From an uncultured Francisellaceae bacterium (GTDB taxonomy: Bacteria > Pseudomonadota > Gammaproteobacteria > UBA6186 > Azoamicaceae): a DNA stretch of 64,000 nt. Location of the stretch: contig CAIVQA010000053.1 of NCBI GenBank assembly GCA_903907935.1, positions 176-64,175 of the forward strand, read 5' to 3'. The position numbers were made by a program. The number at the start of each line of letters is the position of its first letter. Positions within the stretch are counted from its first letter, which is position 1. This document shows, in pieces, positions 33,001 to 36,000 of the stretch.

Positions 33001-36000
33001 AAAACTTTTAATAAAGATCAAAATTTAGAAATACAAATAACCTCTGCAATTTCCTCTTTATTAAATCAAGAAGACGTGTATGCGTTAAGTTTCGATGGAA
33101 TTAGATACGATTGCGGACAAAAATTAGGTTACTTACAAGCAATTGTAGCTATGGCATTAAAACATCCTACTGTTGGTGAAAATTTTAAAAAATATTTAGG
33201 TTCTATATGCTAATCATATATGAGGTTTCAGTGCTCTAAAAAACAAGGAGTGTTGTTTGAGCCTCATTGGTCTCTAGTTGTCTTTGCTTTGCGAAAGGCG
33301 AGTTTCACGACTTGTTTTTTAGAGCACTGAAACCTCATATATGATTAGTATACAACTCTAACATCTTCGGAAAAATAACTTGAGCAGAAAATTTATTACA
33401 AGCTTTTTCCCTACCTAAGATGCCCATTTTACTCATCAAAAGTTGATCTTGCATAAGATCTAATAAGGCATTTGCTAAAGCTTCACTGTTTTGTTTAGGA
33501 ACCAAATACCCATTCACTCCATGTTCAACTATTTCTCTACAACCAGGTACATCGGTAGTAACAATAGCTCTAGCACACAGTGCTGCTTCTAATAAACTTT
33601 TTGGTAACCCTTCTCGATAAGAAGGCAGCACTGCAATATGACAATTATCATATGCTCCAATTACATCATAACAAAAATTTTTCCAAAGGATTAATCCATC
33701 CTTTTGCCACTCATCAAGCATAGCATAGTCTATTGAAGCTGGATTTTTAGGATCAATATCACCATATAAAATAAATTCTGGATTAATAAATAAATTATGT
33801 TTTTTTATATGATCTTTTATATACTTTGCTGCACTAACAAATTCTGCTATTCCTTTAGTCCAAAGCAATCTAGAAACTAAAATAATTCTAATAATATTAT
33901 TAGAATTAGAAAAATCTAATGGTTGTACCGAAAAATATGGCTCTGTAACAATACCAGAACCAGGTATTATTGCTGATTTAATATTTAAATTAGTAAAATC
34001 TACCTGTTTTTTTAAAATTTCTAGATCATCTTTATTTTGTAACAGTAAAATTTGATTATTATTTTTATTGTTAAAAATAAATTTTAAAACTTTATTAACA
34101 AAAAATTTTAAAATTTTTTGTTTTAAATTTAATATTATATTTTTTAACCAAAAATTATATTTAGCTGGAGTAAATACAAATCCTAACCCTCCTAATGCAT
34201 TAATTATACATTTAACTTTAGTAATATTAGCAATTATTGTGCCATATATAACAGGTTTTATAGCTACATGATGAACTATATCTGGTTTAAATGTTTTATA
34301 AATATTATACAACTCTTTAAGAGCTAAAATTTCTTTAAATGGATTTATATAACTAGCTCTGCAAAAAAAATTTAATTCAAATAATTGTAATTTTTGGTTA
34401 TTGATTATTGCTTTGTATTTACTTTTAGAACATTTAGTTGCGACTGCTACTTCATAACCCTGCTGTTTTAAAAAAGTAGCTAATTCCAATCTATGGGAAC
34501 AAAAATAATGATCTTCTGCTACAACGTATAGTATTTTTTTCATTTTGCGTGTATCTACATTAATTTTAATAACATTTTAATGATATTTTGCACTATATTT
34601 ATAAATTATGCATTATCAAAAATACCAAAAAAAATCTGCTTTCTCTTTAATAGAGTTAATGGTAGCCATAGGAGTGATTGCCGTATTAACAGCAATAGCA
34701 ACTCCCATTTATGTAAATTATACAATTAAAGCTAATGTATCCTCTGCTTTACCAATATTAGAAGGATTAAAGACTCAAATTAGTGAATACTATACTGCCA
34801 ATGGTAGTTTTCCTACTAGTTTTTGCACTACAAGTGTAACTACTGGTTGTATAAATTCCTCCTCCTATAGTGATGGTAAATTTATTGGTGGCTCTAGCTT
34901 ATCAACTTCTTGTCCTGCATTAACTGGCGTTACTGGTACTGTATTAGGTTGCGCACAAGTTACATTTAATAATCCAAATCAATCTAATTATCCATTAAAT
35001 GGTACTGTATTATCCTTTATTGCTATCGATGGTGGATCTGCTATCCAATGGATCTGCTCTGGTGGTAGTGGTGCTAATTCTGTTCCTACTATATATCTAC
35101 CTAAATCTTGCCAAAATCCCACGCCACCCTAACGCTCGCCCTTCGGGCTTGTTGCACACGTCAAAAATATCTATCCTGATATTTTTTCGTGAAACTCGCT
35201 TTTCGCAAAGCAAAGATCAACTAGAGAACCAAAGAGGCTCAAACAACACTCCTTGTTTTTTAAAGCACCAAAAACTCATGTACGATTAGTATAACTTTAA
35301 AATATACTTTCCTCTCCACTTGCATTATCACCACTAACACTAGGTGCAACTTCTTTTGGCACAGTTTCTTCGGTAAAAATTTCATAATACTATCTTTTTG
35401 ATCTGGTCTAGCTAATAACCCAGTTGCTGGATCAATTTTTACGGTAACCAAACCTGGTGGTTGTGGTGGTGAATTTTCTGGTCTTCCAGGCAATACTTGT
35501 TCCATAAAATAGATCCACATAGGTAGCGCAGTCTGAACTGCATATTCATGCATTGATTTTGGCTCATCAAACCCAACCCAAGTAGTTACGACCAAATCTC
35601 GATTATAGCCAGTATACCAAGCATCTACATGATCATTAGTAGTGCCAGTTTTTCCTGCTAAATCTTTTCTACCTAACTGCATAGCTTTTTTGCCAGTACC
35701 ATTGGTAATGGCATCTTTCAACAGTGATGTAATTAAATAAGCAATTTGCGGTTTTATAACAGGAATTTTTTCTGATGGTGTAACATTAAATAAAATATTA
35801 CCCTGATAATCATAGATACTATCTATAAAGTATGGAGTAATTCTATAGCCACCATTAGGAAACACACTAAAGCCTGCAGCTAATTCTAATGGTGTTACCA
35901 AATTAGTTCCTAATGCTAAAGATAAAGTTTTTGGTAATTTTTGCGCAGAAAAACCACACTTCTCTATAAATTCTACTGCCTTATCTATACCTAATTCTTG

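Follow-up and report, generated by a model that had tools for sequence, protein, structure and literature searches.

REPINs, which are doublets of repetitive extragenic palindromic (REP) sequences mobilised by RAYT enzymes in Pseudomonas and enterobacteria, show covariation between their arms (PMC3116915), and so does the Bacillus repeat bcr1 (PMC3184786). MITEs (miniature transposable elements with inverted repeats) of the ERIC type have TA at both termini (PMC3184786). Quasipalindrome correction, which is described by the Ripley model and has been followed with thyA, rpsL and lacZ reporters in E. coli, makes imperfect inverted repeats perfect, changes several neighbouring bases per event, acts more readily on longer arms and leads to concerted arm evolution (PMC5941160, PMC7202029, PMC8604942). 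Here we describe A5, an inverted-repeat element at 33204-33352 of a 64,000-nucleotide stretch of contig CAIVQA010000053.1 (positions 176 to 64,175, forward strand) from an uncultured Francisellaceae bacterium placed by GTDB in the Azoamicaceae; the whole stretch is called the window. A5 belongs to a family of hairpin repeats, called family 1, which has arm covariation in common with REPINs and bcr1, and base changes in one arm of a copy are mirrored in its other arm. This behaviour is a clear instance of a known phenomenon of bacterial inverted repeats.

Structure of A5 and anatomy of family 1

A5 is a short-form family-1 element of 149 nt on the plus strand, built of a left arm (33206-33247), an asymmetric core (33248-33310) and a right arm (33311-33352). 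The left arm and the reverse complement of the right arm both read CTAATCATATATGAGGTTTCAGTGC, so the shared changes that the first-pass annotation had reported in the two arms are indeed there; the sole mismatch is at the terminus, TATGC in one arm and TATAC in the other. The terminal inverted repeat extends over 47 nt (33206-33252 and 33306-33352), is 94% complementary and has 53 nt between its halves. The predicted fold is a single long hairpin, with energies of -82.1 kcal/mol for plus-strand RNA (z -16), -69 kcal/mol for minus-strand RNA (z -14) and -47.1 kcal/mol for single-stranded DNA (ssDNA; z -14.8). The arms contain the stop codon of galU (33211-33213) and that of a glycosyltransferase gene on the minus strand (33335-33337), and the candidate TA target duplications are found at 33206-33207 and 33351-33352. 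A5 is base for base the same in three independent assemblies (L110, L111 and L112), which rules out an assembly artefact.

The window, which has a GC content of 31.6%, holds ten full or near-full family-1 copies, a mini-copy and an arm fragment. Family-1 elements are found in a short form of 149-154 nt and a long form of about 223 nt, with inverted arms of about 42 nt; in eight copies besides A5 the arms measure 40-55 nt and are 82-96% complementary. Every copy in the window is intergenic or overlaps gene ends, and the open reading frames (ORFs) that touch the copies do so only with the ends of flanking genes.

The anatomy of the family is read from a right-anchored alignment of 50 or more arms. 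Columns 1-5 of the arm, TATAC, are conserved, and the termini are TAC...GTA flanked by TA. Columns 7-20, a subterminal stem segment of about 14 bp, are hypervariable; the main types of this block are type 1 (TAATCGCACATGAG) and type 2 (TCTCAGCTAATGAG), accompanied by many variants and by a type 3 (CAATTACACTTGAAATTAAGG). Columns 21-42, which read TTTTCGGTGCTCTAAAAAACAAG, form a conserved inner stem with two-state sites at columns 24 (C/T), 25 (G/A) and 28 (G/A). The conserved asymmetric core is composed of GAGTGTTGTTTGAGCC, a small variable hairpin and GGCGAGTTTCACGA. Long copies also carry module C, an optional GC-rich segment of 72-73 nt that lies exactly between CACGA and the right arm.

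Covariation between the arms of a copy

A metagenome-collection scan with a 24-base pattern, which gave 22 pattern matches on 20 contigs, adds about 20 family-1 copies to those of the window. One of the contigs, L122, is the window locus itself at 99.9% identity, so most of the scanned contigs are probably from the same population; no mutual overlap was found among them. In the 24 complete copies of the window and the metagenome loci, the two arms differ on average at 4.75 positions within a copy (median 3.5) and at 10.3 between copies, and none of 20000 permutations reaches the observed within-copy total. The distribution of mismatch counts is bimodal, with two or fewer mismatches in 11 of the 24. 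When the 16 gap-free copies are considered, the same non-consensus base is present in both arms at 62 copy-sites, a non-consensus base is present in one arm only at 24, and two different ones at 5.

Alignment A1, which is composed of 14 short copies, has 49 pairs predicted by RNAalifold. Nineteen of these 49 stem pairs are changed on both sides, with several pair types each, and 96.5% of the cells are paired. Doubly changed cells number 55, against 13.5 +/- 2.8 in column shuffles (0 of 500 as high) and 2-9 in a slid control, where the partner is moved by 1-3 columns and relatedness is preserved. The first-pass annotation had claimed that arms are more alike within a copy than between copies, and had deduced either selection on a hairpin or copying from arm to arm; the first claim holds in the widened sample, and the second is upheld by the permutation, copy-site and covariation counts. 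Its readings of single copies are also borne out: A3 and A9 are perfect mirrors, A8 has one mismatch, A4 has CAG on both sides, and the module C hairpin is mirrored, with one variant at three sites and another at 35163-35186. A2, A10 and A11 combine two outer-arm types, as described there.

The mirrored changes had further been called private to single copies, which is right within the window only, as three of the five changes of A5 recur in other copies, mirrored where both arms are readable. A copy in L131 has the GAGG of A5, again mirrored; the CAG of A5 is common to the copy at 28472-28694, and its ATCATA recurs in a partial copy in L130. Several of the supposedly private changes mark subfamilies and are present in further copies of the genome, and their recurrence means that subfamilies of symmetric copies exist; type-3 arms are likewise common to L126 and L124. 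Comparison of orthologous copies between strains, which had been expected to date the paired changes, was possible for L110-L112 and L122, which are identical to the window across the elements, and the paired changes are not datable from them.

Origin of the mirrored changes

The reading that we favour, in which we place about even confidence, is that mirrored changes arise by copying from arm to arm at the DNA level (quasipalindrome template switching), followed by transposition of the already symmetric copies. Template switching is established in E. coli as a process that homogenises inverted-repeat arms, and comparative-genomic inference extends it to Proteobacteria, where longer arms are affected more strongly (PMC5941160, PMC7202029, PMC8604942). 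In family 1, one arm would mutate and polymerase template switching between the arms (quasipalindrome correction) would either revert the change or copy it to the other arm; repair of a hairpin heteroduplex is an alternative route that would have the same two outcomes. Drift in the unconstrained outer stem would thus be fixed as complementary pairs at an approximately neutral rate, and symmetric copies spread by transposition would give rise to subfamilies with common mirrored variants. We infer the template-switch step, the TA duplication and the type of transposase.

The fastest-evolving part of the family-1 element is its paired outer stem. In outer-arm columns 9-22 the copies diverge pairwise by 0.39-0.43 on average; the corresponding means are 0.23 for the core block that varies most, 0.065 for the inner arms and about 0.02 for the flanks of the core. 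The arms have 16 mirrored and 5 one-sided singletons, and the 51 unpaired core columns have 18. When nearest neighbours by core are compared, 67 arm differences are mirrored and 33 are of other kinds, and the core accounts for 68; for instance, L114 (type 1-1) and L117 (type 2-2) differ at three core sites and at seven mirrored arm sites. Compensation by two hits would be slower than neutral or would leave many mismatched intermediates, whereas copying would be about neutral and leave few, so the observed rates fit copying.

The replacements in A1 are full Watson-Crick pairs, including transversions (CG/AU/UA at one pair), and G:U is present in 3 of 685 arm cells. Eleven single-site mismatches of symmetric copies are divided into six A.C on top, three G.U on top and two transversions, with no strand bias in these small numbers, and the orientation to flanking genes is unbiased (3 sense, 2 antisense, 4 convergent, 2 divergent). 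Mirrored events include an adjacent double change from GAG to CTG in the L124 copy, a block of five changes in L126, and changes of A-run length in L118, L120 and the copy at 20861-21009. In all four mixed copies that are orientable the left arm is of type 2 and the right arm of type 1, and the cores of 1-1 and 2-2 copies are near-identical; this fits whole-block copying between arms and suggests an asymmetric 2-1 ancestor, whose arms were copied over each other to form the 1-1 and 2-2 forms. The hairpins of module C and of family 2, a second hairpin repeat of the window, behave like those of family 1.

Several points weigh against arm-to-arm copying. No conversion event was directly caught in the orthologous copies L110-L112 and L122, and since these are all identical to the window, in-place copying is inseparable from inheritance via symmetric master copies; with these data, neither structure-dependent propagation nor fold-back regeneration at transposition can be told apart from in-place conversion. 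The sample is about 30 copies of possibly several hundred in the genome, and the singletons in it may be subfamily markers. The rate argument assumes that the variable core block is near neutral, yet this block is itself partly paired. The transition mismatches of module C are few and are G:U on the core-sense strand (4 cells), and the asymmetric core loops are the most conserved part of the element (about 2% divergence), both of which would agree with an RNA or ssDNA strand that is recognised in its folded state, and with selection at the level of structure. Strongly asymmetric copies persist, such as the second copy of L131 (8 mismatches), that of L129 (4) and the mixed copies, so homogenisation is neither fast nor universal. 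The TA duplication that we infer comes from one reconstruction, and the cognate transposase was not found among the 48 window ORFs compared with Pfam.

Alternative explanations

Element-level selection, as in REPINs, would enrich compensatory mutations without any copying, provided that a folded single strand is mobilised by a structure-specific enzyme (e.g. RAYT or another HUH transposase) that reads the hairpin and the asymmetric core, and that only well-paired copies replicate. We consider it unlikely, although conservation is high in the core loops (about 2% divergence) and in the inner stem (6.5%), pairing being the sole constraint on the outer stem, and although GGCGAGTTTCACGA is kept in the divergent L118 and L120 copies (with two changes in L121), where it lies outside the search pattern. 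It would also account for the covariation of the small core and module C hairpins and for mirrored variants that are common to subfamilies (type 3 in L126 and L124, GAGG in A5 and L131), and compensatory hairpin changes are reported to be common in REPINs (PMC3116915) and in Bacillus bcr1 (PMC3184786). However, the outer stem, although paired, changes faster than all unpaired parts, which is the opposite of the two-hit prediction; a single mismatch should barely alter the folding of a 42-bp stem (-82 kcal/mol for RNA, -47 for DNA); and mirrored adjacent double changes and indels are hard to reach via independent mutations. The ends are flanked by TA and consist of long terminal inverted repeats, unlike the GC-rich palindromes of REPs, which carry a GTAG/CGTC tag, and no Y1 transposase is found among the 48 window ORFs. 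Symmetry could instead be produced at transposition, if a daughter element is built from one arm and the core and receives its second arm by hairpin-primed fold-back synthesis, so that it is born symmetric. The bimodal mismatch counts (11 of 24 copies at two or fewer), the symmetric 1-1 and 2-2 copies that exist beside 2-1 copies with the same core, and the one-armed (35133-35293) and mini (48023-48080) derivatives agree with such a regeneration, but mixed 2-1 copies, which are 4 of about 24 and of which two have intact and well-paired inner arms, are unexpected unless they are ancestral relics. Nothing in the data distinguishes this regeneration from in-place template switching, we know of no fold-back mechanism for TA-flanked bacterial MITEs, and we hold it to be very unlikely. 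A broader proposal, improbable in our view, is that family 1 propagates via a folded single-stranded intermediate in which recognition is limited to the shape of the hairpin and the conserved core loops (GAGTGTTGTTTGAGCC / GGCGAGTTTCACGA), with one arm regenerated by fold-back synthesis in each round, and not by double-stranded cut-and-paste; the mirrored hypervariable stem and the 1-1 and 2-2 derivatives of a 2-1 ancestor would then be footprints of a transposition chemistry that is undescribed for TA-flanked bacterial repeats.

Alternatively, the copies may be transcribed along with neighbouring genes and the stem selected by the host for a role in RNA, such as termination, cleavage by RNase III or stabilisation of mRNA, and the paired changes would then be classical compensatory substitutions. 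The location of copies at gene ends and within operons (rpmA-obg, murJ-ileS, rho-sdhA), the very stable RNA fold, the A-run on one side of the stem and U-run on the other, as in bidirectional terminators, and the module C mismatches, which are G:U on one strand, are what such an RNA function predicts. We nevertheless find it highly improbable, as G:U pairs are nearly absent from the arms (3/685 cells), mismatches have no strand bias, orientation is unbiased with respect to transcription, two copies lie between divergent genes, and any one base pair of a 42-bp stem would be under negligible selection. Besides, no Rfam family matches the elements, and a generic terminator scan, whose size limit is exceeded by the element loops, did not flag them. 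The last alternative invokes no special process: mirrored variants would be markers of a few symmetric subfamilies and would appear private only through thin sampling. The recurrence of three of the five A5 changes in other copies, the type-3 arms in both L126 and L124, and a partial correlation of arm type with a core polymorphism (A or G before TTTTG) agree with it, but each symmetric founder still requires the identical change in both arms, and double changes are present at 19 or more stem positions, each of which has several pair types. Copies that are nearest neighbours by core are separated mostly by mirrored arm changes, and the slid-partner control, which keeps relatedness, gives no more than 9 doubly changed cells against 55, so that sampling of subfamilies is also a very doubtful explanation.

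Mobile-element identity and host

Family 1 is a non-autonomous and non-coding mobile repeat, that is, a MITE; its small size, its lack of coding sequence, its long terminal inverted repeats and its many dispersed copies are MITE features. The termini read TA-TAC...GTA-TA in every copy, and where copies abut, in L124 and L130, they overlap at a TA or have it in common. Long terminal inverted repeats flanked by TA point to a putative TA-duplicating MITE of the DDE type. The 3' end of galU reads TCTATATTGTAA (SIL*) in relatives, and when A5 and one TA are removed from the window galU it reads TCTATACAACTCTAA (SIQL*), with TCTATA restored; this single reconstruction favours a TA target duplication. 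No true empty site was found in the relatives' loci, where the dapF-porin and dsbB-plsY junctions are too diverged.

Copies of families 1 and 2 are absent from the syntenic loci L133-L140 (about 7-22 kb each) of relatives with HtpG identity of 80-83%, and the dapF-porin spacer has 245 nt in the window against 21 nt in relatives. The absence is a presence/absence difference between distant relatives and does not imply recent mobility; the HtpG of the window matches itself at 100% (P0001), and the next relatives stand at 83%. A Pfam scan of 48 ORFs of the window, which is a small part of the genome, revealed no transposase of the DDE or Y1 type. The sole transposase-like ORF of the window, at 6262-7239 on the minus strand, encodes a YhgA-like Transposase_31 protein (PF04754, E = 1e-60), a putative PD-(D/E)XK recombination-promoting nuclease, and no inverted repeats were noticed around this gene.

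The first-pass annotation had suggested targeting by an IS200/IS605- or IS110-like enzyme, which gains no support, the ends being long terminal inverted repeats flanked by TA; IS200/IS605, IS110 and integron attC readings were all rejected on end structure. The hypervariable block as captured flanking DNA, or as half of a palindromic target, was also rejected, given the conserved TATAC outside the block, and no element-free copy of the hypervariable palindrome is present in the window.

In an Rfam scan of the window, the only match at gathering level is a bacterial small signal recognition particle RNA (RF00169, 48.4 bits) at 32175-32269 on the minus strand, between dnaX and galU, and the best match on a long family-1 copy is PreQ1, with 15.9 bits against a gathering score of 39 (E = 0.7). 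A BLAST search of a plasmid collection and a scan of viral contigs with the element gave no match, and a genome-collection scan with the 15-nt core pattern gave 109 chance matches (L001-L109), the pattern being too short. Family 1 is therefore a new family of a known kind, for which no sequence relative was found in the Rfam, plasmid and viral collections.

The host is an uncultured, AT-rich freshwater gammaproteobacterium. The relatives' loci (L133-L138) contain ORFs of 2700-2900 aa as well as genes for ankyrin-repeat proteins and a TLC ATP/ADP translocase, and the window encodes, at 52129-54570 on the minus strand, an 813-aa protein with a weak match to the lethal factor (LF) domain of anthrax toxin. 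The translocase, ankyrin proteins, giant ORFs and LF-like protein suggest an intracellular or host-associated lifestyle.

Other copies, module C and family 2

The remaining copies of the window differ in their form and outer-arm types. The short copy at 16733-16882 (plus strand) has type-1 outer arms, which differ from each other by one A/G mismatch and one 1-nt indel. A2, a divergent copy at 20861-21009 (plus strand), has mixed arms (left of type 2, right of type 1) and altered inner arms (AAAAAATAAT) that are mirrored. The perfectly mirrored arms of the short copy A3, at 22920-23069 on the minus strand, read ATATAGTAAACGTACGTGAG. A solo inner-arm fragment (TTTAGAGTACCGAAAAC) is located at 28451-28471, directly upstream of the recR start codon, and is followed by A4, the long copy at 28472-28694 (minus strand) with CAG in both arms, whose module C lies at 28515-28587. 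At 35133-35293, on the minus strand, is a long copy minus one arm, which has a mirrored ATC/GAT variant of the module C hairpin (35163-35186) and within which the pilin and PBP1 genes terminate.

The rpmA-obg spacer contains a long copy at 38121-38338 (plus strand), whose module C lies at 38224-38296; GGGGAG, found upstream of the obg ATG, results from three changes, all of which have their mirror image in the opposite arm of the copy. A8, the short copy of the murJ-ileS spacer at 41722-41871 (plus strand), has, besides its one arm mismatch, four changes that are absent from all other sampled copies, and all four are mirrored. The perfectly mirrored arms of A9, a short copy at 47121-47271 on the minus strand, are of type 2. 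A10, at 48023-48080, is a mini-element of 58 nt in which a type-1 and a type-2 outer arm are joined and the core is deleted. A11, a short copy of the rho-sdhA spacer at 60092-60240 (minus strand), has mixed arms, which in core orientation are of type 2 (left) and type 1 (right).

The hairpin of module C reads AAAAATGTC/GACATTTTT at 17216, 28563 and 38225, and AAAAATATC/GATATTTTT at 35163-35186. Its hairpin H2 has the covarying variants CGTGT/ACACG, CGCGC/GCGCG and CGCAC/GTGCG. An alternative fold of module C proposed by RNAalifold was rejected, as it shows less covariation than the four-hairpin model.

Family 2 is a hairpin repeat unrelated to family 1. Its long form, at 17123-17319 on the plus strand, has arms mirrored within the copy and carries module C at 17215-17285, a position equivalent to that in the long copies of family 1; its short form, at 30455-30584 on the plus strand, differs between its own arms at 2 of 34 positions. 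About 10 of 31 arm positions differ between the two copies, and 2-3 differ within a copy; the inner hairpin covaries as well, with GACCAGG/CCTGGTC in one and GACCAGA/TCTGGTC in the other. Module C is common to both families, so the repeats are modular. A long copy of family 1 and a copy of family 2 bracket an insert at 28750-30366, which contains two genes without a Pfam match between recR and dnaX; recR and dnaX are adjacent in the relatives of 83% identity.

Effects on neighbouring genes

Family-1 elements supply stop codons or last residues of genes (33211-33213, 33335-33337, 35132, 35260, 38133, 48042), and the genes that have their ends in elements are those of galU, the glycosyltransferase, the pilin, PBP1, ribosomal protein L27 and a GspH-like protein. 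The C-terminus of the pilin lies within a truncated module C. The start codons of obg (38341) and sdhA (60243) are found 1-3 nt past element ends (38320-38343 and 60225-60245), which places GGGGAG and GAGAG of the outer arms at the position of a ribosome-binding site. Outward-facing promoter-like hexamers are present in the arms as TTTAGA-16 nt-TATGAT/TATACT/TACAAT, a match of 9/12 at consensus level only (28451-28478, 28659-28686, 33318-33345). In the 3' part of the PBP1 gene, at 35388, a single-base indel (TTTCATAATACT against TTTCATAAATACT) separates the window from L122, a metagenome contig of the Joint Genome Institute (JGI); it is the only difference between the two over 1360 nt and may shift the end of the PBP1 ORF.

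Significance

Family 1 is a clean natural case of concerted arm evolution in a bacterial mobile hairpin, as its stem drifts fast while pairing is kept. If the pattern is confirmed genome-wide, it would offer a natural read-out of quasipalindrome correction at hundreds of loci in an uncultured and probably host-associated bacterium, and covariation in repeat-derived hairpins would by itself be no proof of a functional RNA. The elements also reshape the ends of genes at housekeeping loci, to which they contribute stop codons, C-terminal residues and perhaps sites for ribosome binding. As the phenomenon is already known, and with it the class of element and the mechanism proposed, what is gained is a new family that makes a sharper test case, and no new principle.

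Comparison with known systems

Integron attC sites are imperfect inverted repeats that differ from copy to copy, have arms complementary within a copy and act as folded single strands. They are organised as R''/L''-L'/R', with R''/R' core sites of the form GTTRRRY, and are found in cassette arrays beside an integrase, whereas family 1 has TATAC/GTATA ends, no such core sites and single copies dispersed at housekeeping loci; no integrase was found in the window. PATE elements, which derive from IS200/IS605, have two different ends, each with a subterminal hairpin, and no terminal inverted repeats, unlike family 1, which is one hairpin with terminal inverted repeats of 42 nt.

Quasipalindrome correction is a general mutational process, mainly described for arms of 5-20 nt at single loci, whereas family 1 is a family of elements; to our knowledge, the process is undescribed as a driver of diversification across a whole MITE family. 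The pattern of family 1, with its mirrored multi-base changes, indels and few intermediates, fits this process.

REPINs are, like family 1, short non-coding hairpins in high copy number between genes, with conserved segments around a less conserved paired spacer and with compensatory changes across the hairpin, which in family 1 affect 19 of 49 pairs. The arms of REPINs are GC-rich palindromes with a GTAG/CGTC tag, whereas the arms of family 1 are AT-rich (TATACTAATCGCACATGAGTTTTCGGTGCTCTAAAAAACAAG), 42 nt long, end in TATAC/GTATA and have no internal palindrome or conserved tag. The variable part is central in REPINs and subterminal in family 1, and genomes with REPINs have a single-copy RAYT (Y1 transposase) gene, which is not found among the 48 ORFs scanned in the window, a small part of the genome.

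QMITE1 and QMITE2 of Coxiella burnetii are MITEs of a gammaproteobacterial intracellular lineage and, like family 1, frequently have short overlaps with the C-terminal ends of genes (PMC5896051). QMITE1 shares with family 1 the combination of variable ends and a conserved core, but it is 300-400 bp long, with terminal inverted repeats of 21-28 nt and direct repeats of 2-4 bp of variable sequence, and QMITE2 differs from family 1 in its direct repeats of 7-11 nt and its GTAG REP (PMC5896051). Mirrored private changes in the arms, which are present in family 1, are reported for neither of them.

The Correia elements of Neisseria (CREE/NEMIS) and the ERIC-type MITEs have, like family 1, 100-160 nt and long terminal inverted repeats, insert at gene ends and within operons, and have promoter-like hexamers in their arms. 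Left and right end variants of Correia elements combine freely, as they do in family 1. We know of no sequence resemblance of family 1 to Correia or ERIC elements, and arm covariation of a hypervariable subterminal block is, as far as we know, undescribed for elements of this type. By analogy, family 1 would work like a TA-flanked bacterial MITE of the Correia, ERIC and RUP type.

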